Counted from the first letter of the stretch, positions 31,827 through 47,226 are shown. The stretch: 64,000 bases of DNA from Escherichia coli (GCF_024700885.2 NZ_CP117016.1); one strand, 5' to 3'. The notes: generated from the letters alone by a model not told the origin. Translations and numbers: made by a program.

Positions 31827-31991
31827 ATGGCAAAGCCGATCATCACGCTCAATGGCCTAAAAATCGTCATTATGTTGGGAATGCTGGTCATTATTCTCTG
31901 CGGTATCCGTTTTGCCGCCGAGATCATCGTGCCGTTTATTCTCGCATTATTTATTGCTGTTATATATAACTTATTTCGCATAACACATTGA
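31827..31991 (+). pseudogene. tqsA: tqsA (AI-2 exporter) 5' fragment, truncated by island insertion
   Basis: [45 protein letters not shown] runs into island DNA (IYNLFRITH*). The continuation [11 protein letters not shown] resumes at 47227. Confidence 0.9.
31955..31963. repeat. att core copy (integrase-distal junction; I call it attL by window position)
   Basis: TGCTGTTAT, identical to 47218..47226. Confidence 0.85.
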
Positions 31992-32037
31992 TTTAATTAA
32001 ATAATTAACACCGCAAAAAGTGCCAAAAATCGCAAAA

Positions 32038-32060
32038 TGACTACACCAGTGACTACACCG
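32038..32060 (+). repeat. 23-bp arm repeat TGACTACACCAGTGACTACACCG (left arm)
   Basis: A perfect copy lies at 47068..47090 in the same orientation. It is internally a tandem GACTACACC x2. Similarity continues for about 10 more bp (TCG[G/T]TGCAC). Confidence 0.85.
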
Positions 32061-32415: not shown

Positions 32416-32435
32416 GAGTTGCAGATCTGCAACTC
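32416..32435. repeat. Perfect 20-bp palindrome GAGTTGCAGATCTGCAACTC
   Basis: Read directly from the sequence. It lies in a non-coding 0.7-kb island end, next to three CCCAAA..GGGT dyads (about 32324-32396) and a tandem GTAGTTTC x2. Confidence 0.8.
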
Positions 32436-32971: not shown

Positions 32972-32984
32972 GCTGCTGACCTCA

Positions 32985-34646
32985 TTACACCCCGCTAAAT
33001 TCTTCCAGTTTCTGGCGGTGGCTGTCGCTTATATCAAAAGCAAAATCCTCATGCTCTGCCTGGAATGTACCAAACGCCATCAGCGCCGCCACGCTCGGGT
33101 CTATCTTGTTCGGTGATTTTTTCTTGTTCGGCTTGATATTGGCGTTCGCGTCACTCTGCATCACGACGTTACTCATCGACCAGGACAACACCGGATCGCC
33201 ACGATGCACAATCACCCTGCGGTTAACAAAAACTTCGAACGATTTCGCCGCCGGACTGAATCTGAGGTAGGTTTGCGGGAACGGCTCCACCTCAAAACCT
33301 GCCCCCTGTAATTGCGTTCTGAGATGCGTGGCGTTCCACGTATCAAAGCCCACCAGCCTGATATTAAATTTCTCCGCGTCCTGCATGATGTCATCTCTGA
33401 TCCGGTCGTAATCAATGCAGTCGCCAGGCGTTGTGCGTATCCAGCCTGCTTTAGCCCACTGACGATAGATGGCGCGGTTTTTATTGGCGGGGTTCTGTAG
33501 CTGAAATTCCGGCAGATAGTGACGGGAAACCAGCATAATGGTTTTACCGACCGGAAAGGCATAGCACACGCTGGAAATATCGCTGGTTGATGATAAGTCC
33601 AGCCCCGCGTAACACTCCTGGCCGTGTAAATCTTCCTCCGTGAACGTTCCGGCACACTCAGCCCATGCGCCGTTACCCATCCACGGGGTAGCCCCCTGGC
33701 ACCAGATATTAAATCGCTTTGTCATCATCTCCACCCACTGCGACGGAATACCCCGCGCTTTCTGGATGGTTGAGGCCAGTTTTTCACGATCGACGGAAAC
33801 ATCAATATTAGGGTTCGCCTTTATCCACATCGCCGGATCATCAACCTCGTTTTCGTCGTCCAGTTCGTAAATCAGTACAAAAATTGAATCGTTAACCTCT
33901 TCGCCGTCCAGGATCTGGCAGCAATAATCATAGTGCTGCTTACAGGCTGAAACGACGTTGCTGCCTGATGTGGTAATGGCAAATAACAGCCCTTCGGGAC
34001 GTGCGCCCATCCCCAGCTCAAGCGCGGAATAAACGCCGTTATCGGGGTGCAAGTGGTATTCGTCCACGATGGAAAGGCTGGGGTTTGTTCCCTCGATGGT
34101 TGCCGCTTTTGCTGCCAGCGGCTTTAACAGGCTGTTGCTTTTCGGGTGTATCACCTTATGCGCCTGAATATTCACCCGCCTGCGTAACGGTCGGGATAAA
34201 AGGCACATCTGACGCGCATCATCAAAGACGATCCGCGCCTGGTCACGGCTCACCGCTGCGGTGTAGATATCCTGCTGACCGTTCTCCATAATCAGAAACC
34301 AGTTAGCCAGAATCGCGGCGGTCGTGGATTTCGCATTTTTGCGCGGCACTTCGATAAAGGCGCTCGTGTATTTGCGCCGTCCGGTGGCCTTAACCTTAAA
34401 GCCGAGGATGCACGCAAAGGCGAACTGCTGCCACGGCTCCAGCTCAATGGGTCTGCCACGCATCGGTCCTTTTACGTGCGGGCACACCCTGGAAAAGGCA
34501 ATAAACCGCTCCACAACCTCACGATCGAACGTGTAAAGGGGGCTTTTAAGGTCCGAAAAGTACCGTTTAACGGCCTGTTTCAGCCGTTTACAGGCCGGAA
34601 TTTTGCCCGTTTTTACGTCTTCTGCGTACTTATTCCAGGCGGTCAA
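32985..34646 (-). CDS. terL: Terminase large subunit (Terminase_1-type)
   Basis: 553 aa with an ATPase region (VPRKNAKST Walker A-like, IVDEYH Walker B) and a C-terminal nuclease. The TTG start overlaps the terS 3' end and has SD gagga. Confidence 0.85.
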   Translation of the reverse strand: MTAWNKYAEDVKTGKIPACKRLKQAVKRYFSDLKSPLYTFDREVVERFIAFSRVCPHVKGPMRGRPIELEPWQQFAFACILGFKVKATGRRKYTSAFIEVPRKNAKSTTAAILANWFLIMENGQQDIYTAAVSRDQARIVFDDARQMCLLSRPLRRRVNIQAHKVIHPKSNSLLKPLAAKAATIEGTNPSLSIVDEYHLHPDNGVYSALELGMGARPEGLLFAITTSGSNVVSACKQHYDYCCQILDGEEVNDSIFVLIYELDDENEVDDPAMWIKANPNIDVSVDREKLASTIQKARGIPSQWVEMMTKRFNIWCQGATPWMGNGAWAECAGTFTEEDLHGQECYAGLDLSSTSDISSVCYAFPVGKTIMLVSRHYLPEFQLQNPANKNRAIYRQWAKAGWIRTTPGDCIDYDRIRDDIMQDAEKFNIRLVGFDTWNATHLRTQLQGAGFEVEPFPQTYLRFSPAAKSFEVFVNRRVIVHRGDPVLSWSMSNVVMQSDANANIKPNKKKSPNKIDPSVAALMAFGTFQAEHEDFAFDISDSHRQKLEEFSGV

Positions 34647-34986
34647 GCTCGTCCTCTTCTTCTGTTTCCGGTGGGTTTTTACGGCGGCTTATCGGGTCAA
34701 AACCGAGCAAGGAGGCCATTTTTATCATCACCCTTTCAGCGTCTGATTTCGCGCTTAATGCGGGGTTTCTGCTCTCGCCGCCCTGACTGTTAACAATGCT
34801 GAACCCGCGCGCCGCAAGGTCTGCGACGGCTTTCCGGTAAATGGAGTAGTTGACACAATACAGTTCCAGATTGCTCCAGTCGGCGGGGGTCAGGTCTCCC
34901 CGTTCCGCAAGCTGCCGCGATTTTTCCCGCCACTGCTTCACGGCGATGTCATCCAGGTAGGCGGGGGCTTTCGGTGGTCTTGCCAT
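34630..34986 (-). CDS. terS: Terminase small subunit, P27 family
   Basis: 118 aa; MARPPKAPAYLDDIAVKQWRE...LELYCVNYSIYRKA is typical of P27-family TerS. Confidence 0.8.
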   Translation of the reverse strand: MARPPKAPAYLDDIAVKQWREKSRQLAERGDLTPADWSNLELYCVNYSIYRKAVADLAARGFSIVNSQGGESRNPALSAKSDAERVMIKMASLLGFDPISRRKNPPETEEEDELDRLE

Positions 34987-35108
34987 GCTTATTTTTCGTC
35001 AGATTATTTTTCAAAAAATTCCCGTGCATAAAAATTTGAGGAGGCGTTCGGTGCCCGGCGGGGTCGGGTTTGTCCTGAAAACGCCCCCCACCCCGTCATA
35101 CAGCCTCA

Positions 35109-35282
35109 TCAGCGATTGCGGAAACATTCCATAACCTCGCGGTCACGGTCGGTTAATCGCTTCGCTGTGATGCGTTCTGCGCGTCCTGACGCTTTATCTT
35201 TATGCCCTGTTTCCTGTGTCTTCCATGCGTCACGCTGCCTTATAAGTCCACGGATAAGGCGGTTTTGTTCCCGCTCATTCAT
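35109..35282 (-). CDS. Small hypothetical protein (57-60 aa) between HNH and terS
   Basis: This is the C-terminal part of track ORF 35109..35513. The ATG at 35282 (or 35291) overlaps the HNH stop. The rest of that ORF is out of frame inside the HNH gene. Confidence 0.4.
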   Translation of the reverse strand: MNEREQNRLIRGLIRQRDAWKTQETGHKDKASGRAERITAKRLTDRDREVMECFRNR

Positions 35283-35715
35283 CAGCGTCATACATCCAGT
35301 TATTGCGGTTAGCGGCCCGTTCTTCCTCTTCACGAAATCCACCTGCGGCACGCTTGCTTTTTGTTGCCGGATCAAGCCATTTCGTTTTCTGGTTATGACA
35401 CGCCTGGCACAATGGTTGATGGTTCCATTCGGGCCAGAAGAGAACATCATCACCGCCATTAATCGGGATAATGTGATCCACCACCACGGCGGGCGTATAT
35501 ATCCCCTTCTCAAGGCATCGCACGCATAACGGGTTTTTACTCAGATACATGGCGCGGTATTTGTCCCACTGTCTGGAATATCCACGCGCGCGGCGGTGTC
35601 CTCGTCTGGCATCCTCTGCACGCCATGCCGCCCGCCTGTGCTCCTCACACTTGCCGGATTTAACGCGCCTGTTACAGCCTGGTTCTGTGCATCGTCTTAA
35701 TGGTTGCCACGGCAT
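35275..35715 (-). CDS. HNH endonuclease (packaging-associated)
   Basis: 146 aa with Cys pairs and DHIIP...N..LCQACHNQKT, an HNH motif. It sits beside terS as in HK97-like cos phages. Confidence 0.85.
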   Translation of the reverse strand: MPWQPLRRCTEPGCNRRVKSGKCEEHRRAAWRAEDARRGHRRARGYSRQWDKYRAMYLSKNPLCVRCLEKGIYTPAVVVDHIIPINGGDDVLFWPEWNHQPLCQACHNQKTKWLDPATKSKRAAGGFREEEERAANRNNWMYDADE

Positions 35716-36011
35716 CAGTACACCCCCACATCACGGTAAGCCGTCCAGAGTGCGCCTATCGTCATGGGTACGCGTGTTTTTGCGTTATCCGCGACAATCT
35801 GGCGATTTTCATACAGGTGAGCGATAAACATCATGCAGCCAATCTTTATGGCTGGCGTGAACTCCAGCCCGTCATCAAAGCGCCTGCCTATGTGTATCTG
35901 GCACGCCTCAAGCGATGCGGCAATGTATCCGCTGATTAACTGGTCTTCATCGTCGCCATCGATGCGGCAATGGAGTTTCACTTCTTCCAGGGTGATAAGT
36001 TCTTCTGTCAT
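35715..36011 (-). CDS. gp6-like head-tail connector protein
   Basis: 98 aa. MTEELITLEEVKLHCRIDGDDEDQLISGYIAAS is the typical Phage_connect_1 N-terminus. ATGA overlap with the upstream gene. Confidence 0.75.
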   Translation of the reverse strand: MTEELITLEEVKLHCRIDGDDEDQLISGYIAASLEACQIHIGRRFDDGLEFTPAIKIGCMMFIAHLYENRQIVADNAKTRVPMTIGALWTAYRDVGVY

Positions 36012-36346
36012 TTTTCCGCGCCCTCACGACAAAGAATTTCAAGGCGTGTCCTGGCGGCATCCGGCAGCGGCTGCCCGATGATATTCAGTACACGCCCCGC
36101 CAGCGGCCCCGTACTGACCTTTATCCGGCTGGTGGCGTTGATGTCCTTCCGGTACCGTATCCAGATCCTTACGGTACCAATCGCCAGCTCTGCGCCCGAT
36201 GAAATGGCCTCCTTGCTGCTGACCATGTTCACGCTTGCCCAGAGTGTGTGACCGTCCTCCCACGTTTCGAGTATTTCGCCGGTTATATCCCTGGTCTGTT
36301 TCAGGGTCTGAATCGTTATCCTGTCACGCAGTCGCCCTATGTTCAT
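36008..36346 (-). CDS. Head-closure / head-tail adaptor protein (SPP1 gp16-like)
   Basis: The start was set at MNIGRLRDRITIQ (ATG 36346, ATGA overlap with the portal stop), giving 112 aa. Confidence 0.7.
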   Translation of the reverse strand: MNIGRLRDRITIQTLKQTRDITGEILETWEDGHTLWASVNMVSSKEAISSGAELAIGTVRIWIRYRKDINATSRIKVSTGPLAGRVLNIIGQPLPDAARTRLEILCREGAEK

Positions 36347-37554
36347 TCCGGTTTTTCTCCCTCGCTGATTTTTACTTCCTGTTTCCATGCCTGGCTGAAC
36401 TCATCACCACCATCACGCGGTGACAGACCTTCACGTTCGCGGGCTTCGTTCGGACACATAACGCCGGATTTGATGCCGCGCTCATAGGTGGCAAAGCGTT
36501 CGCCAGGTGTGGCCCGTAACAGGTCCGCGCTGTCAAACTCCACCTGATACCGGATACCAGGTACAGGCGAGGCCACCAGCAGGGCGTTTTTTATCTGCTG
36601 CTCAAAGTTCGCCAGCCACGGGCGCATCGTCATGGTGAGAAATGCGCGGCTTGCCTCGCTGAAATTGCTGTAGGTGCTGTTGCTGTATTCCTGCAAAAAA
36701 ATCGGCGAGACGTTGAACATTCGGGCGATGTCTTCAATGGTGAAGCGACGGGAGGCCAGCCATTCAGCATCCTGATTACTCATGCCCAGCTGCTGATAGC
36801 TCATACCCCCTTCAAGGATGGGCGTTTTTCCGGCGTTTCTGGCCCCTTTGTAGCGTTCCAGTGCGGCTAATGCCTGTTTGCCCTTCACGCCGTCCAGCCA
36901 TTCGCCTGACGTGATAACCCCTGCCGCCATCATGCCATCACGCATCACGCTCGCGCCGTGGCGTTGTTGGGCCAGCCCAAGCCCCAGCGATTCGCGGCAG
37001 ATGGTTACAGGTGAGCACCCCATAAAGCCGTCATCCGTGGAGTAACGAAGGTGAAGTACTTCCCACGGTAAATAGTTGCGGGTGTTTCCGGTGTAGGCGT
37101 CAGTGATGCAGTAGCGCCAGTTGTGTTCGCCTGTCTGCTCCACGTTCACCGACTGCGGCGGGTAAGGATGTAAAGCCGCCGGAAAACCATCACGCCCCCA
37201 CTGAATCACCGCATAAGCATTACCGTTTAACAGGCAGTGGCGGATCATCATTCGCTTAAACTGGTAGGGGGTTTGCCATGCGTTCGGGCGCTCGTTGAGG
37301 ATGTGATCGACCGGATGAGAATCAAGCCACTCGCGGGCCTCCTTCCCCTTCTCATTGCGTACCAGGTACAGGTAACACGGCATGGTAGCCACCGCCTCAG
37401 AGATGACCGTCACGGCGTTCATGACGGCGGGCAGTGATTCCGCTGTCCCCGATGATACGTACTCACCCGCCCCCGTGTTCGATGTGCCAGCCAGCGCCAT
37501 AAATTCATCCAGCGTCATGCTGCGCTGCTCTTTTTTTCTTCTGAAAGGCCACAT
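36343..37554 (-). CDS. Portal protein, HK97 family
   Basis: 403 aa, recognised by family-typical sequence and position. SD gggggtg. Confidence 0.85.
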   Translation of the reverse strand: MWPFRRKKEQRSMTLDEFMALAGTSNTGAGEYVSSGTAESLPAVMNAVTVISEAVATMPCYLYLVRNEKGKEAREWLDSHPVDHILNERPNAWQTPYQFKRMMIRHCLLNGNAYAVIQWGRDGFPAALHPYPPQSVNVEQTGEHNWRYCITDAYTGNTRNYLPWEVLHLRYSTDDGFMGCSPVTICRESLGLGLAQQRHGASVMRDGMMAAGVITSGEWLDGVKGKQALAALERYKGARNAGKTPILEGGMSYQQLGMSNQDAEWLASRRFTIEDIARMFNVSPIFLQEYSNSTYSNFSEASRAFLTMTMRPWLANFEQQIKNALLVASPVPGIRYQVEFDSADLLRATPGERFATYERGIKSGVMCPNEAREREGLSPRDGGDEFSQAWKQEVKISEGEKPE

Positions 37555-37555
37555 A

Positions 37556-38128
37556 TCACACCCCCGCTAAATCCACCCACCAGCGGCGATTATCCGCACG
37601 CGGCATTTTTTCGGGGTGCTGCTCATACAGGGAACGGCGGGCCAGCTCCACGCCGGAATCGGGGTAAGCCGGTACCGATGTAACGGTAATTTCGTACAGT
37701 TCCGCCACCAGCACGGTGCGCACGCATGGATCTGTTGTGGTATCCCATACATCCTTACGGGAGCGAAAGCCAAAGCTCATCCCCGAGATGTCCCCACGCT
37801 TAACCAGTTCGATAACGTCGCGCCCTGTACTGGTATCCGGTGGGGTCAGTTCAAAGCGTAACCCTGTTTCGTCCTCTTCCAGTTTCAGCGTGCCGGAACG
37901 GGTGCGCCCCAGTAACATGCTGTGGTCATGCTCATACAGGCCGCGAACGTCATTACCCGCCGCAAGCCACTCAGTAAACGCCCCCCGCTGGAATTTTTCG
38001 TAAAACTCCCCCCATAGCAGTTCTGAAAGCTTATCCCAGCGAACAACGTAGCCCGTCAGCGTACCGGCTCCGCTGGTAGTGATTTCCGATGACCGGATTT
38101 CCATACTCTTCATAATTTTTTCACCCAT
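37556..38128 (-). CDS. Prohead serine protease, HK97 (S78) family
   Basis: 190 aa (start may be 38113). EHD...LLGR and GMSFGF motifs are present. Confidence 0.85.
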   Translation of the reverse strand: MGEKIMKSMEIRSSEITTSGAGTLTGYVVRWDKLSELLWGEFYEKFQRGAFTEWLAAGNDVRGLYEHDHSMLLGRTRSGTLKLEEDETGLRFELTPPDTSTGRDVIELVKRGDISGMSFGFRSRKDVWDTTTDPCVRTVLVAELYEITVTSVPAYPDSGVELARRSLYEQHPEKMPRADNRRWWVDLAGV

Positions 38129-38137
38129 AAAACACTA

Positions 38138-38157
38138 AAGGGGCTTTTAAGCCCCTT
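38138..38157 (-). terminator. Hairpin between capsid and protease genes (possible attenuator)
   Basis: Stem aaggggctt/aagcccctt, followed on the minus strand by ttagtgtttt. Confidence 0.4.
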
Positions 38158-38167
38158 CTGTATGCTG

Positions 38168-39325
38168 TTAATCGTCGTCCTGTGGCAGTTCCAGAATCTT
38201 GATCGCGTTCGAATCCACCACGCCACCGCCTAAATATTTCTGCGTGAAAATTTTGATGAAGCCCGGCTCTGTGAGGTTGTCCGGTCTGGTGCGAACACCT
38301 GTTTCGTGATCAACAATGTAGTAACCGCGTTTGAAGTCACCCAGGGCAATAACGTTATCCGGCATAAACTCCAGATATTCGACCGGAAGGCCCAGTAACG
38401 TATCAGGATCACCCGCCTGTAAACGGTCGCGCCAGATGTAATCACCGTTCGCGTTCTTCACCTTCTGAAGTTTTGCCGCCGTCGTGGAGTTAACCACCCA
38501 GACCGCGTTTTTGCGGTATTTTTTACGTAATGCAAATTTCAGGTCGATCAGCGGGTCCGCAGATGTCCACGCCAGAGATTCGGAAGGTTTAATTACCTGC
38601 AACGTACCAAAATCACGCTCTTTGTCGTTCTTCTCTGCACGGGGTACGGATAAAAAGCCTTTTGCTTTTTTGTCACCGTCGCCCACAACCAGATCGCTTT
38701 CTTCGGTTTCCGTGAAGTTGTCGCCAATCTCGCCCGTCAGCCATGAAAGGATGTCCACATCGGAAAAATCCACGATTTCCTGCGTGGTGCGCGGGTACGC
38801 ATAGACCGGATACAGCTTAATGCTCACCTCGTTAATCTGCGGGGTGCTGGTCTGTTCGCGTGCCTTACCCTCTTCACCGTGGTTAACGGTCGCACCGCCA
38901 GCGGAAACAAGCTGCTTAAACTCGTTGCTGCTGATTTTCTTCACGGTACAGATGCGGCGCATGGTGGATTCATCCGTCAGCATTCGCATGATTTCGGTGT
39001 TCAGTTCGGGGATAACGGTATAACCACCATCAGCGGGAACGCCTGTACTTAATGCGCGGGTTTCACCTGTCAGAATGTAGTGACGTAGTTCGGCTGGGTC
39101 AGTGGTCTGACTGCTTTTACCTGGCTTGCTGCGCTCTTCGTCTGCAATGGCTTCAAGGCGGGAAATGTCTTTATCGAGGGATTCAGCTTTAGCGCGTAAT
39201 TCGTCAAATTTTGCGCCCTCAGCATCGTTAAGACTGCGGTTTTCTTTTTCCGCGTTCTCCAGCATGTCGCGCATCTGATTTTTAATGGCGGTTTTCTGCT
39301 GGCGTAATTCGATTATTCTCGGCAT
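38168..39325 (-). CDS. Major capsid protein, HK97 fold, with N-terminal delta/scaffold-like coiled coil
   Basis: 385 aa with a charged helical N-terminus (about 100 aa) followed by an HK97-family capsid body. Confidence 0.88.
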   Translation of the reverse strand: MPRIIELRQQKTAIKNQMRDMLENAEKENRSLNDAEGAKFDELRAKAESLDKDISRLEAIADEERSKPGKSSQTTDPAELRHYILTGETRALSTGVPADGGYTVIPELNTEIMRMLTDESTMRRICTVKKISSNEFKQLVSAGGATVNHGEEGKAREQTSTPQINEVSIKLYPVYAYPRTTQEIVDFSDVDILSWLTGEIGDNFTETEESDLVVGDGDKKAKGFLSVPRAEKNDKERDFGTLQVIKPSESLAWTSADPLIDLKFALRKKYRKNAVWVVNSTTAAKLQKVKNANGDYIWRDRLQAGDPDTLLGLPVEYLEFMPDNVIALGDFKRGYYIVDHETGVRTRPDNLTEPGFIKIFTQKYLGGGVVDSNAIKILELPQDDD

Positions 39326-39539
39326 AAAAAAAGTCCTGGGGTTAAGTAAGGAACTCCAGGACGCGGCAAAAACTCAACCGTTTTTCATAAGGAAATCAGC
39401 AATCGCACCGATCGTTTTCCCGCCTGGTAATGAATATTGGCGAGAACATTAACAGGCGGAAAAGTGGCCCCAGCGTCCTGGCACCACGGGCGAGAATAAT
39501 CATGATTCAGTTCGGGTAAAATATGCCGATCCGCTCAGT

Positions 39540-39565
39540 GAACAACGTGGAACAACCACGAACAA
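39540..39565 (+). repeat. Three GAACAA units at exact 10-bp spacing upstream of the capsid operon
   Basis: GAACAA at 39540, 39550 and 39560. Confidence 0.8.
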
Positions 39566-39583
39566 ATAATTTACAAAACATGA

Positions 39584-39606
39584 CAAAAAGCCGGATTGCT
39601 CCGGCT
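39584..39606 (-). terminator. Rho-independent terminator ending the early/replication operon
   Basis: The minus strand reads agccggagcaatccggct + ttttgt, immediately after the stop at 39613. Confidence 0.7.
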
Positions 39607-39612
39607 GTGTGA

Positions 39613-39894
39613 TTATCTGTCCTGGTAATTTCGCCATATTTCATTACCAGCACCATCCATACCCATTTCGGCATAAGTGCGATCGACCGCCTTTTTCAGG
39701 TCTCCGTAGTTATCCGGCGGCTCCGGTGGCCTCTGTGCCTTCCTGGAACATTCCAGCCGTCGCATCGTGATGTGATGCCGTTCCTTGTCTGTCTCCACCA
39801 GTTGCATGACTTCACCCCATCGCGCCGACGCTCTCCGGTAAAAGCCTTTCGCCTCCAGTTCTTCCGCTATGCGGTCATGTACCATCGTCCCCAC
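39613..39894 (-). CDS. PerC-like transcriptional activator (candidate)
   Basis: 93 aa. IAEELEAKGFYRRASARWGEVM matches the (L/F)(W/Y)RRAxxRWxEV motif I recall for the PerC/Pch family. Not verified by search. Confidence 0.5.
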   Translation of the reverse strand: MGTMVHDRIAEELEAKGFYRRASARWGEVMQLVETDKERHHITMRRLECSRKAQRPPEPPDNYGDLKKAVDRTYAEMGMDGAGNEIWRNYQDR

Positions 39895-39897
39895 CCC

Positions 39898-40308
39898 TCA
39901 GAACGGAATATCATCACCGTAAGGGTCATCGCCTCCCGCTGGTGGCTGATTACCCTGTGTGCCTGTGGTCTTGCGTCGGCTCCCACCAGGACGTGCCGCA
40001 CGGGCACTGATTACGCTGTCTGCAATAACCTGATAACCCTGCCGCGTTTCCCCGTTCTGTCCGGTCCACTGGCTGACCTGCATCGTGCCGGATACGCTGG
40101 CAACGTCGCCTTTTTGATGTTTAGCCAGGAAGTCGGCCTGCTTACCAAATGCGATGACCGATAGCCATAACGTCGCCTGTCCATCCTGTGCCTGGCTGCA
40201 TGGCAGCGATACCGCCATACGCGCCAGCGTCATCGGTGTACCCTTGCTGGTCTGTTTTACCTGCGGGTCGTCCACCAGCCGCCCGTAAGCTGCTATCTGT
40301 GCTGTCAT
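39898..40308 (-). CDS. ssb: Single-stranded DNA-binding protein
   Basis: 136 aa with an OB-fold N-terminus, a Gly/Pro-rich linker and the acidic tip DDIPF. Confidence 0.88.
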   Translation of the reverse strand: MTAQIAAYGRLVDDPQVKQTSKGTPMTLARMAVSLPCSQAQDGQATLWLSVIAFGKQADFLAKHQKGDVASVSGTMQVSQWTGQNGETRQGYQVIADSVISARAARPGGSRRKTTGTQGNQPPAGGDDPYGDDIPF

Positions 40309-40583
40309 GATTCCACCTCTCCGGTTTTAACGTTGATGGTTGTTACCTGTTCCGCTTCGGCAATCTCCCGCTCTGTCAGCGTGGCAAAATTTGCCGCCGT
40401 CGTGGTCATGAATGCGCTTATCAGTTTGGGATGTGCTTTCGCGTATCCTTCCCCCGCGTGGCGGTCTATCGTTCTGATTGCCACCTTTAAAGCGTGCTCT
40501 GTCATGTCTAACGCGCGATATTTCGGTTCTGTTCTGTCTCTGCGTTTTTTGAGTGATTTATTAAATTTCCCTGAAGTGTGCAT
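40305..40583 (-). CDS. Hypothetical protein (92 aa)
   Basis: ATG at 40583. Its stop overlaps the ssb start (ATGA). Confidence 0.5.
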   Translation of the reverse strand: MHTSGKFNKSLKKRRDRTEPKYRALDMTEHALKVAIRTIDRHAGEGYAKAHPKLISAFMTTTAANFATLTEREIAEAEQVTTINVKTGEVES

Positions 40584-40632
40584 ATTTATTTTTACCCCCT
40601 CGTTTAAAAAGTTTTGAGTTGTGCCTCCCCTT

Positions 40633-40855
40633 GTCTACCTTATCTACCTTAGTGGCCCTCATACCAGTAATGGCGCGGCTTTCAGCGGGGTAGAGTGCTT
40701 TTATCCACTATCTACCCCGTGTCTACCTCCCTGTCTGATTCAGGTAAAATCAGGTAGAGAGGGTAGATAGTGGGTAGACAGTAAAAAAAGGTTATCTACC
40801 TAACTTAATGCACTGAATTAAATGTATTTTTCTTTACTCAGGTAGACAGGGTAGA
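40633..40855. repeat. Iteron cluster / candidate island replication origin
   Basis: 11 copies of the hexamer GGTAGA/TCTACC. TCTACC starts at 40634, 40644, 40711, 40722 and 40795. GGTAGA starts at 40689, 40753, 40762, 40773, 40841 and 40850. They flank an AT-rich stretch (40801-40840) directly downstream of the primase stop. Confidence 0.75.
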
Positions 40856-40871
40856 CAGCAATTACAAAAAA

Positions 40872-42626
40872 TTATAAAAACGCGTCGCACTCGTCTGTTG
40901 TTATTGCGTTAGTCTGCGTTACTCCCTTAACTTTCCGCGTAATATATTCATGTCCGTAAACTTTCGCGGCTGGCTTCATAGCCTTGCCAAAGTCATTTAC
41001 GTTTAGCGGTTTGCTCCTGCCTGCGTACGCCATAAACGCCAGATAGACGCGGTAAAGGCTGTTTCTGGTCGTGTACTTCACTGAATCGCCACCGCCGCCC
41101 ATCATCAGGCCGCGTGCTTCCTCCAGAAAATTCAGGAACTGGCAAAACTCAATAACCGGATCCGTCTGTTGCTTTATTGCCAGAGCTTCATCACCGTCAC
41201 GCTGTTCCAGTAGTAAAGCCCGTGCCTTCTCAGGGTCGGTAAAGTTCGCCAGCAATCGGCGGATAATGACAGGGATTTCAGCCGCGATCTTTTCCGGTAG
41301 CTCCCTGTCTTTTTCGGCCTCACTGACGATATTGTCGAAACGGAAAATCACGCGACGACGTGCCACACCTCCGGCCCGTTCGGTGAATATCATCGGGTTA
41401 TTGTTGGTCGCCAGCACCACCGCCCTGATTACCGCCGTGAAACGCTTTTCGTATTTCGGGTTAATTTCCACGGGGTCACCGCCCGTGATTTTCTTGATGC
41501 CCGTTCCTTCGCCTGTATATTTCGGCTGGTCAGCCAGGACGATAAGACGACTCCCGACAACCTGCGCACGTCCACCAGCATCATCAAGCGATGTCATTTC
41601 AGCGCTTACCGTGTTCTGTTTCCCTGCCAGAAGGCTGGCTATGTGTGTGAATGTACTTTTACCGCTCCCGCCGTCTCCGGTGGCCTCAATAAACATCTGC
41701 CAGTCGTACCGGTTCGCCATAATCATGTACAGCGCGGCACATATACGCATCATCTTGCGCGGGTCTTTTCCGGCTGCGTGCTCAAGCCATTTATGAAAGT
41801 TTGGCGCGTTATCGCGGATGTTCTCCCCTGGTGCTGGTGGCGTGTACTCAATGCCGTTGTGCGTGGTGATCCAGTTCTCCGGCGTGTGCGGGGAAAATTC
41901 CCCCGTTTTCAGGTCAAGCGCACCATTGGCGAACGGCAACAAATCGCCGGACGGCTCGCCCATTGGTTCGGCAATAACTTTTAACGCTTCCACGGCGTTA
42001 TTGATTACGCGCTTGCTGAAAGTGGCCCTGTGCTCTGAATAGATCGCCACCATTTCGCGGCTAAGTTCCATTGTGCTGACCGGACACCATACCCCGCCGC
42101 GCCATACGTGAACGATTTCACTTTCAGGATGTACGCAAACGCCATCAAAGCGATCGGCAAGCAGTTGCGCGCGCTCACTGTCCGCCATCTGCGAAAGTTG
42201 CGCCTTTTGCTTTACCGGAAGCTCAATGACCAGACCATCAGAAAGATTCTGGCGCTCACGGGCCAGATATTCGCGCCAGTTCTCCACCTTCTGACCGTGC
42301 ATACCATCAGGGTAAAAATTTGCATCCTGTACGCCTGCCGCCGCCAGCTTCTGACCAATCGCCTTTATCATTACTGGCGCAAGATATCCGGCCCTGAATA
42401 TGCGCACGGATTTTCTGCCTTCCGGCACAATTTGCAGCTTATCCAGTTCGGATAACTGCTGCTCCCCAAGCCACACAGGAGGCTCATTATCTCCGGCCAT
42501 ACGCGCGTCATGTTCCTGCCATTGTTTTGCGTGTGACCAGGCATCACTACCCGCAAAAATAATGACTTCTGTTTCTTTGTGTTTTATGCCGCGTGACTGC
42601 TGTTTTACGTTCGGTGCCAGTTTCAT
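40872..42626 (-). CDS. P4-family primase/helicase (pri-rep)
   Basis: 584 aa with Walker A GDGGSGKST and Walker B LIVLADQP. The C-terminal architecture is D5/P4-alpha-like. Confidence 0.82.
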   Translation of the reverse strand: MKLAPNVKQQSRGIKHKETEVIIFAGSDAWSHAKQWQEHDARMAGDNEPPVWLGEQQLSELDKLQIVPEGRKSVRIFRAGYLAPVMIKAIGQKLAAAGVQDANFYPDGMHGQKVENWREYLARERQNLSDGLVIELPVKQKAQLSQMADSERAQLLADRFDGVCVHPESEIVHVWRGGVWCPVSTMELSREMVAIYSEHRATFSKRVINNAVEALKVIAEPMGEPSGDLLPFANGALDLKTGEFSPHTPENWITTHNGIEYTPPAPGENIRDNAPNFHKWLEHAAGKDPRKMMRICAALYMIMANRYDWQMFIEATGDGGSGKSTFTHIASLLAGKQNTVSAEMTSLDDAGGRAQVVGSRLIVLADQPKYTGEGTGIKKITGGDPVEINPKYEKRFTAVIRAVVLATNNNPMIFTERAGGVARRRVIFRFDNIVSEAEKDRELPEKIAAEIPVIIRRLLANFTDPEKARALLLEQRDGDEALAIKQQTDPVIEFCQFLNFLEEARGLMMGGGGDSVKYTTRNSLYRVYLAFMAYAGRSKPLNVNDFGKAMKPAAKVYGHEYITRKVKGVTQTNAITTDECDAFL

Positions 42627-42922
42627 TTTTTACCCCTGAATCCGTTAATCATGGTTTTCAGCTTCTGGATGTTTGCCCGTGCCCTGGCGTTGCTGGTGGA
42701 CACGTTATGCGGCGCGGTCTGTACCAGAGAAAAATCACGCCGGAACTGATAAACAGGCATCACGCAATCATATTCGTAACCTTCACGGCGGTAGGTTACG
42801 CGCCGTTCTTCCACGCCCTTAATCATTACCGTGCCGCCGTACTGGTCGCGGTAAATATCGCCGCGCGTAAATTTAGGGTGAGTGTTGCCACTGGCAGTTA
42901 AGCCAGAATATTTAAGTTTCAT
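42623..42922 (-). CDS. Hypothetical protein (99 aa)
   Basis: SD ggaga. ATGA overlap with the primase start. Confidence 0.55.
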   Translation of the reverse strand: MKLKYSGLTASGNTHPKFTRGDIYRDQYGGTVMIKGVEERRVTYRREGYEYDCVMPVYQFRRDFSLVQTAPHNVSTSNARARANIQKLKTMINGFRGKK

Positions 42923-42927
42923 TATTT

Positions 42928-43161
42928 TTATTCTCCGGTGTGCTGTTCTTTATATCTGTCGTGCAATAGATCTATTTCTTGCAGTTCCATTATTACAGGC
43001 TCAAGAAGCGTTATTAATGCCGTGGCAATTCTTGATTTTTGTTTGTCGCGTTCATTGTCGCCAAGTGTTTCAAGCCATATGCGCAATATTTCCAGCATGT
43101 TTTCACTGTGAGAAAGTGCAAGAAATGCGCGGTCTATTGTTTCGTGGTAAATATCACGCAT
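42928..43161 (-). CDS. Hypothetical protein (77 aa)
   Basis: ATG with SD gagga. Part of the packed operon. Confidence 0.5.
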   Translation of the reverse strand: MRDIYHETIDRAFLALSHSENMLEILRIWLETLGDNERDKQKSRIATALITLLEPVIMELQEIDLLHDRYKEQHTGE

Positions 43162-43387
43162 GGCTTACATCCTCAGGAAATTTTCTTCTATAACGCGCCT
43201 CTGCCACATATTCCGCATAATCGGCGGCGATATTCAGTACATCAAGCCCCGTTGATTTATATTCTCTCGTGGAAAGTAAGAAAAAAGCCGCTCTAATAAG
43301 TTCTGGCATTGACGAAAGCGCATCAGCCGCATCATCAGGAACGCCGGAAAATTCCTGTTTCAGGGAATTAAAACGATCATCACGCAT
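43154..43387 (-). CDS. Hypothetical protein (77 aa)
   Basis: ATG with SD gggggg. It has 8-nt overlaps with both neighbouring genes. Confidence 0.5.
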   Translation of the reverse strand: MRDDRFNSLKQEFSGVPDDAADALSSMPELIRAAFFLLSTREYKSTGLDVLNIAADYAEYVAEARYRRKFPEDVSHA

Positions 43388-43745
43388 GTTTACCCCCCTG
43401 AATGACCTGATAACCGCAACTGGTCAGCAACTCGATAAATTCCGGCAGTGTGCCGAAACAGCAATCATCACGCAGCCGTTCACAGGATACCTCGACGCCG
43501 TTTTCGTAGTGACTCACCATACATCCGGTAAAATGCAGATCATCATCGTGATGGCTCGTTGACGGCTTAATCAGTCGCGCACGTTCCGCCAGTTCCAGCA
43601 ATGCTTCAACGCTTCCGGCAATTGCACCATCCGGCAGGTGATAATTACGCACTATGCGCCCGTTCTCCACATTGACCAGCAACTGCCCGGTAAATTTCTC
43701 ATCAAACTGAATGCTGTTAAGGTCAGAAATTGACAGATTATGCAT
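43380..43745 (-). CDS. Hypothetical protein (121 aa)
   Basis: The start was moved to MHNLSISDL (ATG 43745), preceded by a strong SD aggagg. Confidence 0.55.
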   Translation of the reverse strand: MHNLSISDLNSIQFDEKFTGQLLVNVENGRIVRNYHLPDGAIAGSVEALLELAERARLIKPSTSHHDDDLHFTGCMVSHYENGVEVSCERLRDDCCFGTLPEFIELLTSCGYQVIQGGKHA

Positions 43746-43962
43746 GGTGCACCTCCTGCACATCAGCCATGATAATTTTTCCGGCCTTATCCAGTGCCTG
43801 ATCGGCTTTTAGCTGCACAAATGCTAAATAATGGAAGATGCATTCTGATTCTCTGGCTGCGTGTTTATGCGCCCTGTCAGCAATAACAGAAATATCAATA
43901 AGCGCGTGCATCAGCGTAGTGAGCGCGGCGGCGGCTGCGTCCGGTGTGGTTTTATTGCACAT
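43738..43962 (-). CDS. Hypothetical protein (74 aa)
   Basis: The start was moved to MCNKTTPD (ATG 43962), preceded by SD ggagggg. Confidence 0.5.
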   Translation of the reverse strand: MCNKTTPDAAAAALTTLMHALIDISVIADRAHKHAARESECIFHYLAFVQLKADQALDKAGKIIMADVQEVHHA

Positions 43963-44182
43963 GTACCCCTCCGCATTTTTTTTCGTTAGAAATAAGCGTT
44001 CTTCTTTCCTGTTCATCGCTCAGGAATACGCAGACCTCACCGCTAAGGCGTTTAAGTAAGCCGATGATTGCCCCTGATTCGCTGTCGGTCATCATGCCAG
44101 GGTAATCCTCTGCCAGTGCGCAAATAACTTCGATTTGGTGGGCGCGTTCTGCTGCCTGTTGTAGTGTGATTTCCTGGCTCAT
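43952..44182 (-). CDS. Hypothetical protein (76 aa)
   Basis: ATGA overlap with the icd-like stop. Confidence 0.5.
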   Translation of the reverse strand: MSQEITLQQAAERAHQIEVICALAEDYPGMMTDSESGAIIGLLKRLSGEVCVFLSDEQERRTLISNEKKCGGVHVQ

Positions 44183-44379
44183 AAGCCTACCCCCTGACGA
44201 ATACGGGCAGCAAATACCATCACGCAGCCAGCCGGAGATTGCTGGCGTGCTTCCTGTTCGCTGGTGGCCTCAATGGTAATCACGCGCGGTTGTGCCGTGC
44301 TCAGGGCGATAAAACGCCAGATGTATTTATTCAGGTTGTGCGAGTCCCGCCCTTGCGGGTGTGTGGTATGATTTCTCAT
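44179..44379 (-). CDS. Icd-like host cell-division inhibitor (66 aa)
   Basis: This is the C-terminal 66 codons of the 340-aa track ORF. ATG at 44379 with SD gaggt. YIWRFIAL...ATSEQEARQ...VFAARIR resembles Icd-like proteins of P4-type elements, from memory. Confidence 0.55.
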   Translation of the reverse strand: MRNHTTHPQGRDSHNLNKYIWRFIALSTAQPRVITIEATSEQEARQQSPAGCVMVFAARIRQGVGL

Positions 44380-44475
44380 AGCTACCTCGATACTTTCGCT
44401 ATCGTTGGTGGTTAGAAGCCCGGTTAGTGTTAGCGCACTGCCGGGTTTCGTCGTTTCTGCACCTTGCGCCAACAA

Positions 44476-44529
44476 GGTGTTGAACACCAATTTAAACCCA
44501 GGTGTTAAACACGTCAAGTGTTGAACACT
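44476..44529. promoter_or_regulatory. Three operator-like 13-bp dyads (GTGTT-N-AACAC) in a divergent promoter region
   Basis: GGTGTTGAACACC 44476-88, GGTGTTAAACACG 44501-13, AGTGTTGAACACT 44517-29. A putative rightward promoter, TTGAAC(44521)-17 nt-CATACT(44544), overlaps the third dyad. Confidence 0.65.
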
Positions 44530-44578
44530 TATTTTTTTTCCTGCATACTGCATTTGTTTTTTATGAGGGGTACACCAC

Positions 44579-44758
44579 ATGGCGACAAAAGCGGTAAACG
44601 CAAAATCACAAACCGTTGCGGCAAGGGTTCCGCATGAAGTTATGAACAATGTTGAGGCGGTAAAAATGCCTGGCGAAAGTACGGGGCAATTTGTTACTGC
44701 GGCATTAAAACGAGAAGTTGAATATCGCCAGCGGCGCAAGGCCAAAGAACCAGAGTAA
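44579..44758 (+). CDS. Ribbon-helix-helix (Arc/CopG-like) DNA-binding protein, 59 aa, candidate island repressor
   Basis: Hand-translated as MATKAVNAKSQTVAARVPHEVMNNVEAVKMPGESTGQFVTAALKREVEYRQRRKAKEPE*. SD gagggg. It has a beta-strand-helix-helix pattern. It is below the ORF-track cutoff and is one of only two plus-strand genes in the island. Confidence 0.5.
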   Translation: MATKAVNAKSQTVAARVPHEVMNNVEAVKMPGESTGQFVTAALKREVEYRQRRKAKEPE

Positions 44759-44800
44759 TCACCATCAGCGCCGTGGTGTAAGGTATTACGGCGCATTGCT

Positions 44801-44989
44801 ATGCAGGACAACACAATGACCGATAAAGAATTGACCAAAACATTATCACCGGCACGGAAAAGACGGCGCAGAAAGATAGAGCATGAATCAGAAAGATTCG
44901 CGCCATGTGCTTTTGCCCTTGAGCAATTCCTTAAAGAGTACAGGGAAAAGCGCTCATTGCAGGTATGGCAACGAACTGAACCAGACTGA
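44801..44989 (+). CDS. Hypothetical basic protein (57-62 aa)
   Basis: Downstream of the RHH gene and before the plus-strand terminator. Contains an ARKRRRRK stretch. The start may be 44816. Confidence 0.4.
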   Translation: MQDNTMTDKELTKTLSPARKRRRRKIEHESERFAPCAFALEQFLKEYREKRSLQVWQRTEPD

Positions 44990-45084
44990 TTGCATTGCCC
45001 ACCAGCCTGATAACGGCTATCATCCCCGTGCTTATGTTTGGGATCACACACACAAACGGCGCAGCGGGTTATCTGTTCAGAAAG

Positions 45085-45112
45085 GCGGCTCCATTTCGGG
45101 GCCGCTTTTTTT
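45085..45112 (+). terminator. Rho-independent terminator of the rightward RHH unit
   Basis: Stem gcggctcc/ggggccgc (8 bp, one G-U pair) followed by 7 T. Confidence 0.7.
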
Positions 45113-45258
45113 ATACCTGAAAAACCCCAATTTTGTTGTTTTTCAGTTTCACCAGGGCGAACGAATCCCCGCCCACGTTCTGGCGTATATTCAATCTTCA
45201 TGGTTATAGCTCTGTGTTCAGATGATTGATGTGTGGCGGCTGCGTGCCGCCAGCGTGA

Positions 45259-45447
45259 TTAATGAACTGCCTTGCAGCTATCCTTCCAGGCCAGAACCTC
45301 GGATAAAGACCAGCCAACGGAACGACCGCCAAGTTTACGACGTGATGGGAATTGTCCGGCCTTTTCCAGGCGGTAGCGACACGTACGGCTAAGGCCGGTT
45401 AGTTTTTCGCATTCTTTTTCACGTATAAACCGATCAGTGCTTAACAC
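45259..45447 (-). CDS. alpA: AlpA-family regulator / excisionase-type HTH
   Basis: FIREKECEKLTGLSRTCRYRLEKAGQFPSRRKLGGRSVGWSLSEVLAW is the typical AlpA/Phage_AlpA motif. The favoured start is the GTG at 45447, 5 nt after SD aagggggg. The track ORF extends to a TTG at 45528. Confidence 0.8.
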   Translation of the reverse strand: MLSTDRFIREKECEKLTGLSRTCRYRLEKAGQFPSRRKLGGRSVGWSLSEVLAWKDSCKAVH

Positions 45448-45720
45448 TATTGCCCCCCTTTCGTTTCTTAAAGAGTCATCAGGTGTCTTATTGTGTCGTA
45501 TTGTTCCCGCTAGAGTGATGAATGGCAAATACTGAGGATGTATGATTTACAGAAAATGAAACAGTAAGAATAAAATTTTTTAAATTCATGTTAATACAAA
45601 GGCATAAAATATTGTTCCATGCCTTTTTTCTCGCTCTTTAAAGAGTGATTCGCTAGTGTACAAAAAACCAGTAACGCATTAAAAATCAGCTACTTATAAA
45701 TCCGTACGCTTTTTCGCCTC

Positions 45721-45765
45721 TTGTTCGTAGTTGTTCCACATTGTTGCTCATTGTTGCACGTTGTA
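45721..45765 (-). repeat. Five TTGTT/TTGTA units at exact 10-bp spacing (inverse orientation of the GAACAA arrays), int-alpA intergenic
   Basis: Units start at 45721, 45731, 45741, 45751 and 45761. Confidence 0.8.
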
Positions 45766-45812
45766 TCTGTTCGCATATCCAGTATGCGCATACTGAAAAA
45801 ACACGAAAAAAA

Positions 45813-47042
45813 TTATTTTCTTCTGGCTACGGGTAGCGTGGTTACGTTTTCATGTGTTCCCGCCAGTATCCCTAACCGCTCCGTCCACATATCCAGCGCA
45901 TTGCGTTTCGCATCCAGATAACGGGAATGATTATAAACTCGCTGCATTCCTGGCATCTGGTGGCCTGTAAGCTGCTCCACGACATGCGGATCAACGCCTA
46001 AATCGTTCAGCATGGTTGTAAAGGTGCGCCGGATGTCATGCAGTGACCAGTGAGGGTGATTAAGCCTCCTGTACGCTAATCTTCCATACTGCGATACGCT
46101 GGCCTCCTGTTTCACTTCCCCCAGCAATAAGCCCGTGTGCCTGTTCTGCTCCACCAGCTGCGTGACGAACGGCAGGATCGCTTCCGGTATGGGCCGGAAT
46201 ATTGCGACCTTCGTTTTGCTGTGCTCCTTCGGAACGGTCCATAGCATTTCCGTAAAATCCCACTCCCCGATCTCCGATAACCTCAGTTCTACCGTTCTGG
46301 CTCCGAAGACAATCAGGAGGCGGATTAACGCGACGTAGTAAGGGGAGAATATTTTTTTGTCCAGTGCCTGCAATAATTCGCCAAGTTCTTTGTTACTTAA
46401 GACACGTTCGCTTATATCCGGTTTTTTCCCAACGTCCGCAACGTTCAGATCGTCCAGAACGTTGCTGATTGCATAGCGCCGCCTACGGCAGAACTTAAGC
46501 GCCTGTTTGCACGCCTGTAGCACGAATCCGGCAGTAACAGGCGTTCGCTTTGCCACCTGGTCAAAACAGGCCAGCCAGTGCCGTAGCTCGCATTTATCCA
46601 GCGGCATAGCACCAATCTGCTGTATTACGTGATTATTAAGTCGCCTTTTCAGGGCGATATAATCCACGCGGTTTTCCTTTACGTAATACTCAAGCCAGTA
46701 GGTGAGCGCATCGCCAACCGTTACGGGCTTTAACGCTTCCTGTACGGTGTAATTCATCTCATGACGTGGATTTTTCCCCTCAGCCAGCCATGTGCGACAC
46801 TGTGCGGCTTTTTCCCTGGCTGCTTTCAGGCTCAGATCAGGATAACTTCCCAGCTTAATGCGTTCGGGTCGTGTCTCCCTTCCCGTTCCGGCCCTGTATG
46901 TGAAATACCAGGTCAATTTCCCTGATGTTAAATATTTCACGCTCAGGTTTCCGCCATCACTATAAAACGTGTTTTTCTCCGCTGGCTTACCATGAAGTTT
47001 CCTTAGCAAGGTATCGCTCAGTTTGTTCATTGCTCTGCTCAC
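45813..47042 (-). CDS. int: P4-type tyrosine integrase (DUF4102 arm-binding N-terminus + catalytic core)
   Basis: 409 aa, with either a GTG at 47042 or an ATG at 47030 (MNKLSDTLLRKL). The N-terminus is GKLTWYFTYR...LGSYPDLSLKAAR. Catalytic motifs HDIRRT and Y in VYNHSRY are present. Confidence 0.9.
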   Translation of the reverse strand: MSRAMNKLSDTLLRKLHGKPAEKNTFYSDGGNLSVKYLTSGKLTWYFTYRAGTGRETRPERIKLGSYPDLSLKAAREKAAQCRTWLAEGKNPRHEMNYTVQEALKPVTVGDALTYWLEYYVKENRVDYIALKRRLNNHVIQQIGAMPLDKCELRHWLACFDQVAKRTPVTAGFVLQACKQALKFCRRRRYAISNVLDDLNVADVGKKPDISERVLSNKELGELLQALDKKIFSPYYVALIRLLIVFGARTVELRLSEIGEWDFTEMLWTVPKEHSKTKVAIFRPIPEAILPFVTQLVEQNRHTGLLLGEVKQEASVSQYGRLAYRRLNHPHWSLHDIRRTFTTMLNDLGVDPHVVEQLTGHQMPGMQRVYNHSRYLDAKRNALDMWTERLGILAGTHENVTTLPVARRK

Positions 47043-47067
47043 GTTTTACCCCCTCTTTACGAAAAAG

Positions 47068-47090
47068 TGACTACACCAGTGACTACACCG
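47068..47090 (+). repeat. 23-bp arm repeat TGACTACACCAGTGACTACACCG (right arm)
   Basis: Perfect copy of 32038..32060, in the same orientation. Confidence 0.85.
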
Positions 47091-47217: not shown

Positions 47218-47226
47218 TGCTGTTAT
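47218..47226. repeat. att core copy (integrase-proximal junction; I call it attR by window position)
   Basis: TGCTGTTAT, identical to 31955..31963. Confidence 0.85.

Follow-up and report, generated by a model that had tools for sequence, protein, structure and literature searches.

Helically phased (G)AACAA arrays in a capsid-forming phage satellite of Escherichia coli and AlpA as their candidate reader

Recombination directionality factors (RDFs) bind head-to-tail on direct repeats placed one helical turn apart and are often also transcription regulators (PMC7498355, PMC2951348). Here we describe a family of repeats of this layout, (G)AACAA units at exactly 10-bp spacing (hereafter M2), in a capsid-forming phage-inducible chromosomal island (cf-PICI) that lies within a 64-kb stretch of an Escherichia coli chromosome (NZ_CP117016.1, referred to as the window), and weigh AlpA, the small winged-helix protein encoded by the island, as their reader. 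Among the closest described systems, Apl of phage 186 recognises five att and seven pR-pL sites, direct repeats 10-11 bp apart, to which it binds cooperatively in a head-to-tail fashion with bending of the DNA (PMC7498355). TorI of KplE1 has five sites (GTTCG, GATCG and GTCCG) in two blocks, one of which holds three sites at about 10-bp spacing next to the -35 element of PintS (PMC2951348). Vis of satellite P4, an AlpA-family protein needed for excision, is described, where it is cited in PMC7498355 and PMC11963761, as building complexes of higher order on att DNA and bending it, and is named as an AlpA homologue in PMC6092414. In E. coli PICIs, AlpA activates its own promoter, PalpA, and is both necessary and sufficient for excision (PMC6092414). 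It is the master activator of EcCICFT073, EcCIEDL933 and EcCIMP1, is needed for transfer and is induced by helper phage, and cf-PICI induction is lost in an alpA mutant. The AlpA of the present island belongs to the same family; the papers searched give no binding site for these proteins, and M2 would be the missing cis elements.

Compared with these systems, the island resembles the Apl case in having helically spaced direct repeats at both att and promoter, here with three to four units per arm, five plus two at alpA and three before the capsid operon. It differs from Apl and Cox in that sites occur on both att arms and that one array precedes the satellite capsid operon, not the switch region; moreover, Apl and Cox repress the promoters of the lysis-lysogeny switch, whereas PICI AlpA has been reported as an activator. 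The TorI block overlaps and regulates the integrase promoter, and similarly the transcribed strand of M2 reads TTGTTC(G), with the array of the right arm placed 55-95 bp 5' of int. However, TorI sites are found on attL only and act negatively on intS, whereas the island arrays occupy both arms, and TorI was absent among the sequence and fold matches of the island AlpA. Vis is only remotely related to the island AlpA in sequence, and the likeness derives from the descriptions in the citing papers, not from site architecture. Vis also modulates P4 late promoters. Dual-function RDFs that act on phased repeats are a principle already known from 186, P2, P4 and KplE1, and the island would, by analogy, be a further case.

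Phased arrays at the island arms, alpA and the capsid operon

ACAA/TTGT chains at exactly 10-bp spacing begin at positions 32079 (three units), 39542 (three), 47099 (four) and 45721 (five, inverted), and a longer word, ACAACGTGnAACAA, is common to all four arrays (Table 1). A first-pass annotation of this DNA had reported the same phased motif at these four places, all of which exist, with coordinates accurate to one base, although small corrections in the units were necessary and a fifth site had been overlooked. At the left arm, AACAA stands at 32078 and 32088 as described, but the unit assigned to 32098 reads CACAA (ACAA at 32099), whereas at the capsid operon GAACAA recurs exactly at 39540, 39550 and 39560. 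The int-alpA array has TTGTT at 45721, 45731, 45741 and 45751 but TTGTA at 45761, and the right-arm array contains four units instead of three (ACAA at 47099, 47109, 47119 and 47129, with AACAA at 47118 and 47128). The overlooked site is a pair of units at 45487/45497 on the - strand, approximately 40-60 bp 5' of the alpA start, which was found by position-weight scan. The two arm arrays cannot be counted as independent, because both are within one 76-nt diverged direct repeat (32034-32109 versus 47064-47139, 76% identity). An exact 15-mer, AACAACGTGGAACAA, is common to the left arm and the capsid array. Near the right att core, at a distance of 25-40 bp, two GAAACA words stand at 10-bp spacing (47179/47189, spanning 47179-47194) and look half-M2-like or OmpR-box-like.

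Chains were defined as at least three ACAA/TTGT words at a fixed period and were counted in the window against 1000 dinucleotide-preserving shuffles. Four chains were observed at period 10, all at the reported sites, compared with a mean of 0.009 and a maximum of one in the shuffles. No chains were detected at periods 4-9, 11-13 and 15-19; one unrelated chain occurred at period 14, and at period 20 the only chain is the int-alpA array again, counted at alternate units. The first-pass remark that similar arrays are unseen in the flanking chromosome was borne out, with zero period-10 chains in approximately 139 kb of non-island E. coli DNA, and the possibility, raised in the same place, that such arrays are common by chance finds no support in the scan. 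The phased arrays are non-random and island-specific. A scan of viral contigs for four AACAA units at 10 bp gave mainly giant-virus repeats among the matches listed.

Related islands were then compared. A search of genome contigs with AlpA gave three loci, only one of which (L003) was useful, and the E. coli genome collection and viral contigs were used thereafter (loci carry L numbers throughout). Relatives were fetched with the alpA region as query; their intergenic DNA is 74-99% identical to that of the window, and they occupy four chromosomal sites (tqsA, phoQ/roxA, smrA/abgR and yifB). Every relative fetched carries M2 at both arms together with three to six phased TTGT units just 3' of the int stop codon. 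Alignment of nine int-alpA intergenic regions revealed ACAA cores that are invariant, or nearly so, at 10-bp intervals, separated by four-base spacers that vary freely, even at 74% identity, and the proximal ACAA pair beside alpA is kept in L008-L012 and L071. Judged from this pattern, M2 is maintained by selection, and its arrays are very probably functional protein-binding sites. Another 10-bp-phased repeat, three to four copies of AATATCG, was observed in the int-alpA intergenic region of L025 (1955-1993) and L047 (1278-1326).

Both arms also carry a doubled motif with a 12-bp period (M1). With at most one mismatch, M1 matches cluster at the two arms only, apart from one isolated one-mismatch match at 50196, outside the island. 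The M1 doublet is separated from M2 by 17-18 bp on the left arm and by 7-8 bp on the right; M2 is 85-140 bp away from the mapped core, and its presence on both arms is unusual for RDF sites. In islands with other Int alleles, GTGACTACACC becomes TTAACTACACC or CTGACCACACA; the doublet consists of two copies of GGTGTAGTTAA in L047 (Int 75% identical), of TGTGTGGTCAG in L025 and L052 (N-terminal domain of Int 65-66% identical) and of TGTATAAACAT in the neighbouring island of L042 (Int 45% identical). The M2 array adjoining M1 stays TTGTTCG-like in L047, L025 and L052. As L047 and L052 differ in M1 despite 85% identity between their AlpA proteins, M1 tracks Int and not AlpA. Being restricted to the arms and different from one integrase allele to another, M1 is likely to be an Int arm-type site. 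A comparable motif has been described in helper-embedded PICIs, namely a doubled 12-bp-period attP motif, tgTGTATTGCantgTGTATTGCa, of which two co-oriented copies stand about 81 and 132 bp from the attP centre. Its four half-sites were suggested to suit an Int tetramer, the binder not being known in that study (PMC10111431). M1 is like this motif in its period, its doubling and its similar distances from the centre. The same paper reports that other PICIs lack the motif and has no description of AACAA arrays at 10 bp, and the likeness concerns M1, not M2. On account of this doubled geometry and the covariation of M1 with Int, we read M1 as putative Int sites and M2 as putative sites of a partner protein.

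AlpA and the capsid operon as candidate partners of the arrays

AlpA of the island matches the Pfam family Phage_AlpA (PF05930), and its closest sequence in the PDB is 8C3T with 39% identity. Its AlphaFold model (predicted local distance difference test, pLDDT, 86) superposes best on this same structure, the GIsul2 excisionase (template modelling score 0.79-0.85), with further matches to the RdfS excisionase, Pukovnik Xis and MerR-type winged helices. Features of RDF operator arrays are present in the gene next to int for a small protein of the winged-helix RDF type and in the tandem direct repeats at one helical turn (exactly 10 bp, at five sites), and the first-pass view that arrays on one face of the helix are typical of Xis/AlpA-type proteins agrees with the published direct-repeat binding of RDFs. 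The motif is shared by the att arms, the alpA upstream region and the region upstream of the capsid leader, and the sole sigma-70-like match (TTGCCA-N17-AACAAT) is near alpA. A region autoactivated by AlpA must hold AlpA sites; since M2 (five plus two units) is present upstream of alpA and M1 is absent there, this points to AlpA as the M2 binder. L006 and L007, two PICIs at phoQ/roxA, encode AlpA with exactly the sequence in the window. L025 and L047 have a diverged AlpA allele (66% identity over the tblastn-aligned segment, 54-56% at full length), and in diverged alleles that occur alongside M2 (50-56% identical) the residues R-T-x-R-Y..EK and GGRSVGW of the helix-turn-helix and wing are retained. 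It is likely that the protein bound to M2 is AlpA. Of the two readers initially put forward, AlpA or the PerC-like protein, the former stands as the best candidate owing to its excisionase-like fold and the known autoactivation of PalpA, whereas the latter fails a presence/absence test, as discussed below. No published PICI AlpA operator and no account of PDB 8C3T was found in the literature searched, which did not cover subscription-only papers.

With slightly less assurance, the M2 units probably serve as operator sites for AlpA in its role as the winged-helix RDF of the island. Helper phage would raise alpA expression, and AlpA monomers would then bind M2 head-to-tail on one face of the DNA. 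At the att arms, AlpA on M2 beside the Int doublet M1 may bend the DNA and help Int to assemble the excision complex, while the known positive autoregulation would run through the five-unit distal array and the two-unit proximal pair upstream of alpA. Upstream of the capsid gene, the three-unit array would place capsid and packaging expression under that induction signal as well.

A different mode of action is known for AlpA of Pseudomonas aeruginosa, a Q-like processive antiterminator that employs a promoter element followed by a terminator to be bypassed (PMC7969949, PMC9371919). This protein is much larger, with at least eight helices, DNA contacts up to residue 142 and an N-terminal ring in the RNA exit channel, and it recognises a single GGGACG between -35 and -10. 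In contrast, the island AlpA has 62 aa and comprises the winged helix only, and its arrays of three to five units lie outside a recognisable promoter, although a downstream terminator-like hairpin is shared with the Pseudomonas layout. By its different protein architecture, the island AlpA falls outside the family of the Pseudomonas protein, with which it shares the name.

On the transcribed strand, the region before the capsid gene runs from the perC stop codon through the terminator, TTTTGTAAATTAT, the units TTGTTCGTGG, TTGTTCCACG and TTGTTCACTG and a leader of about 190 nt to the capsid ATG. The terminator of the early operon, cited in the first-pass annotation, was found at 39606 to 39589 on the - strand. 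The last leader hairpin (39333-39362; -14.1 kcal/mol, z = -4.9), with U7, abuts the capsid ATG and buries the AGGA Shine-Dalgarno sequence; a comparable hairpin with U8 is visible in the sequence of L059. Because of this terminator-like hairpin, capsid control may exceed simple activation, and the leader suggests that the packaging operon is under read-through or translational control. The third capsid unit is followed by 16 nt and TATTTT, a weak promoter at best, and conservation of hand-picked weak -10/-35 candidates at the arrays was too low to assert them. The alpA upstream region has a layout like the capsid one, with an array, about 100 nt and a hairpin with A/T tracts (45598-45626, between the distal array and alpA), the stem of which changes from GGCAT/ATGCC to GGCGT/ACGCC in L071, a compensatory change. 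Read on the + strand, this hairpin would terminate RNA antisense to the alpA promoter region.

The capsid array is kept in 38 of 38 window-type cf-PICI loci of viral contigs with upstream sequence; 30 of them retain the three TTGTTC cores unaltered, and one core substitution is present in each of the remaining eight. Across 359 E. coli genomes, identity in the array region is 95-100%, and the array is also present in L003, L008, L009, L059 and L071. The last of these, a cf-PICI inserted at yifB, has a capsid of 74% identity, a different leader type and no PerC, together with a window-type AlpA and the TTGTTC x3 array. Across the sequences compared, the capsid array goes with the AlpA type and not with the packaging lineage. 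In classical PICIs a palindrome, TTGCATTTTATGCAA ... TTGCAAATTATG, is located upstream of the lambda-like capsid and decoration genes (L006 9230-9275, L011 8815-8860 and L010 10005-10050), suggesting that the late operon of these islands has a different, dimeric regulator.

Among cf-PICIs, the approximately 30 bp that follow TTTTGTAAATTAT occur in three forms: type A with TTGTTC x3, type B with two to three copies of (T)TAC(C/T)C at 10-bp period, and type C with the degenerate units TTGTGC/TCTTTC/CTGTTC. Among loci with a recognisable segment, type B is mostly accompanied by an HTH_17 protein of the L060 type at the alpA position, an association that is confounded by common descent. The TTTTGTAAATTAT landmark itself, as compared in L053-L060 and L071-L089, has the look of a recombination junction or else of a control element that the lineages share. 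In L060, an exact 14-mer, TATCCGTACCCATG, which is the first unit of its capsid-upstream array, recurs within the integrase coding sequence (3310-3323 and 9786-9799).

That the array at 39540 positively controls the capsid operon is possible, at somewhat less than an even chance. More tentatively, AlpA may also be the late-gene switch of cf-PICIs, polymerising on the three-unit array after TTTTGTAAATTAT and turning on the capsid/packaging operon, with lineages having swapped a ~30-bp operator cassette (TTGTTC, TTACCC or degenerate), perhaps to match their own regulator. Such a switch might work either on a weak promoter, by activating it, or on the leader hairpin, by helping RNA polymerase to pass.

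Competing explanations for the arrays

Several observations weigh against AlpA as the common reader of M2, or against its control of the capsid operon. The orientation of the array relative to transcription at alpA is opposite to that at the capsid and int sites. L059, with an AlpA 66% identical over the tblastn-aligned segment, is without an array between int and alpA, and in L025 an M2 array is located just 3' of alpA (2545-2582) instead. M2 is unchanged while AlpA diverges to 50-56% identity, a constancy that a conserved host factor would also give. In phage-inducible chromosomal minimalist islands, AlpA induces excision without transcription change (PMC10803314). At the capsid operon, no sigma-70 consensus promoter was detected beside the array in a consensus scan, and a terminator-like hairpin intervenes between the array and the capsid ATG. 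Classical PICIs that have PerC and an identical or nearly identical AlpA (L006, L007, L010 and L011) have no M2 before their capsid genes, so that AlpA control of packaging genes is not a general property of PICIs. L058 is a counter-example to the pairing of segment and regulator, with a type C segment and a type-B-like, possibly disrupted, HTH gene, and in TTACCC-type cf-PICIs phased TTACCC was found neither at the arms nor 5' of the RDF gene; for both reasons, the swappable operator cassette matched to the RDF stays at the level of a hypothesis.

With regard to the binder, M2 could be read as Int arm-type sites, recognised through Arm-DNA-bind_3, with the internal arrays as autoregulatory or decoy sites of Int. 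Lambda-type integrases bind tandem arm sites about 10-11 bp apart, Int possesses an arm-binding domain, and occurrence on both arms is commoner for Int sites than for RDF sites. However, it is M1 and not M2 that co-varies with the Int N-terminal domain, M2 being unchanged at 60-66% domain identity, and the number of half-sites expected of an Int tetramer, four, is already provided by M1 (PMC10111431). There is no known reason for Int to act upstream of the capsid operon, and the documented activator of PalpA is AlpA, not Int, rendering this reading unlikely. Marginally less probable still is a conserved host protein, for instance a response regulator of the OmpR/PhoB or ArcA type, acting on M2 as an architectural or regulatory factor. 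Response regulators of this class bind direct repeats of 10-11 bp with G(A/T)AACA-like cores, the GAAACA pair by the right core (47179/47189) has such an appearance, and M2 is unchanged in islands in which AlpA and Int have both diverged to 50-67% identity. Against a host factor, no such array occurs in the 139 kb of chromosomal background, the position of M2, next to Int arm sites in either arm and again upstream of the RDF gene, is the signature of an RDF, and the DNA-reading residues of AlpA kept in the diverged alleles explain the constancy of M2 equally well.

For the capsid array taken alone, it could be argued that it is a non-functional relic, a copy of an att-arm array that stayed behind after fusion of an early PICI module with an HK97-type packaging module, e.g. 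from tandem islands. The left arm and the capsid array share the exact 15-mer and are 77% identical over 35 nt, tandem satellites do exist (L042), and the array is situated exactly at the module junction beside the conserved TTTTGTAAATTAT. Nevertheless, 30 of the 38 window-type loci have every unit of the array intact, and the remaining eight have a single core substitution; the array region is 95-100% identical across the 359 E. coli genomes; it is kept in L071 and L059 despite a diverged leader or capsid, other lineages hold a different 10-bp-phased triplet (TTACCC) at the same spot, and no M1 or core remnant lies alongside. A relic is about as improbable as Int binding. Far less credible is the capsid array as a recognition site of TerS (cosB-like) or as a target of the PerC-like protein, even though TerS proteins bind phased direct repeats and PerC is annotated as a transcriptional activator encoded immediately upstream. 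L054 and L055 have TerS proteins of 100% identity (HNH 99%, portal 100%) and yet different array segments, which rejects TerS as the reader, and the same motif at the att arms and alpA would make no sense for TerS. PerC was rejected as the binder by its distribution: L071 has the array without PerC, L006, L007, L010 and L011 have PerC without the array, and islands of types B and C are without PerC. Given L071 and the reverse case of the classical PICIs, PerC is neither necessary nor sufficient for the array. AlpA binding to M2 is the favoured reading.

Island context and implications

Positions 31500-47500 of the window are identical to a locus in E. coli strain MLI114 (megablast), and the gene map is taken from the RefSeq annotation of that locus, with all genes on the - strand (Table 1). 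By its gene content, the island is an EcCIEDL933-like cf-PICI of 15.26 kb between cores, located within tqsA. It has an int-alpA-pri early module, a packaging set from capsid to TerL, no tail genes, a length of about 15 kb and a dedicated att, and its gene set and size agree with cf-PICIs typified by EcCIEDL933 (10.1101/2022.09.08.507074). Comparison with the empty K-12 site identified TGCTGTTAT as the 9-bp core, present in duplicate at the island ends, in agreement with the att assignment of the first-pass annotation.

Table 1 Features of the island and of its arrays (window coordinates)
Feature	Position	Strand	Evidence or remark
Left att core TGCTGTTAT	31955..31963		tqsA 5' fragment/island junction; comparison with empty K-12 tqsA
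M1-left, doublet ATGACTACACC / GTGACTACACC, 12-bp period; candidate Int arm-type sites	32037..32059	+	Motif scan; starts 32037/32049
M2-left, three 10-bp units AAACAACGTG GAACAAATAG ACACAAGAAA	32077..32106	+	Motif scan; kept in L006-L012 and L071
93-aa open reading frame	after TerL	-	RefSeq annotation
Prohead protease, portal, head closure, connector, HNH, TerS, TerL	to 32985	-	RefSeq annotation
Major capsid, first gene of the packaging operon	38168..39325	-	RefSeq annotation
Structured leader of the capsid operon	39326..39539	-	Leader fold (39326-39520) z = -3.7
M2-capsid, three units GAACAACGTG GAACAACCAC GAACAAATAA	39540..39569	+	Transcribed - strand = TTGTTC x3
Landmark TTTTGTAAATTAT, 13 nt, directly 5' of the variable array segment	39566..39578	-	Kept in all cf-PICI lineages examined
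Intrinsic terminator at the end of the early (perC) operon	39589..39606	-	Read as 39606->39589
PerC-family gene	39885->39613	-	RefSeq annotation; Pfam PerC
ssb	after primase	-	RefSeq annotation
Primase	42626->40872	-	RefSeq annotation
icd-like and small open reading frames	between alpA and primase	-	RefSeq annotation
alpA, 62-aa Phage_AlpA winged-helix protein; proposed M2 binder	45259..45447	-	PF05930, E = 5e-17; RefSeq: helix-turn-helix gene
M2-proximal, two units GAACAATACG ACACAATAAG at 10 bp	45487..45506	-	Overlaps predicted PalpA -10 (TTGCCA-N17-AACAAT)
Hairpin with A-tract on one side (A6) and T-tract on the other; bidirectional terminator-like	45598..45626		-12.5 kcal/mol, z = -3.7
M2-distal, five units ATACAACGTG CAACAATGAG CAACAATGTG GAACAACTAC GAACAAGAGG	45717..45766	-	int-alpA intergenic region
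int, tyrosine recombinase	45813..47042	-	Pfam Arm-DNA-bind_3 (N-terminal) and Phage_integrase
M1-right, GTGACTACACC x2, 12-bp period	47067..47089	+	Motif scan; starts 47067/47079
M2-right, four units GCACAAAGGG CTACAACGTG AAACAAGCTG GAACAAGGAA	47097..47136	+	55-95 bp 5' of int start codon; kept in all related islands
Right att core TGCTGTTAT	47218..47226		Comparison with empty K-12 tqsA

Just 3' of the primase stop codon, two inverted iteron sets with an 11-bp period (TCTACCC / GGGTAGA) were observed at 40699-40731 and 40752-40790; they are probably the replication origin of the island. In L054, L056 and L061, iterons of other sequence (GTATTCACC) follow pri. An Rfam scan of the island returned nothing but a sub-threshold match to the SymR antitoxin RNA (33 bits versus a gathering score of 61) at 44380-44452 on the + strand, in the icd-like / YlcI-YnfO region of the early operon, which is unrelated to the arrays.

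AlpA has been termed the master regulator of Gram-negative PICIs, yet no DNA target is defined for it in the papers searched, which are also silent on how cf-PICIs time the expression of their own capsid genes. The arrays offer precise and mutable cis elements, at five places, for the AlpA regulon, the excision complex and the control of the capsid operon, and the architecture of the arms splits into an Int-type doublet and an RDF-type array. If AlpA is indeed the reader of M2 and also the late-gene switch, one protein would govern excision, autoinduction and capsid production via one motif, providing an explicit and testable link between excision and capsid production in cf-PICIs. Such a link would be relevant to satellites that spread virulence and resistance genes, as well as to PICI-based delivery tools.

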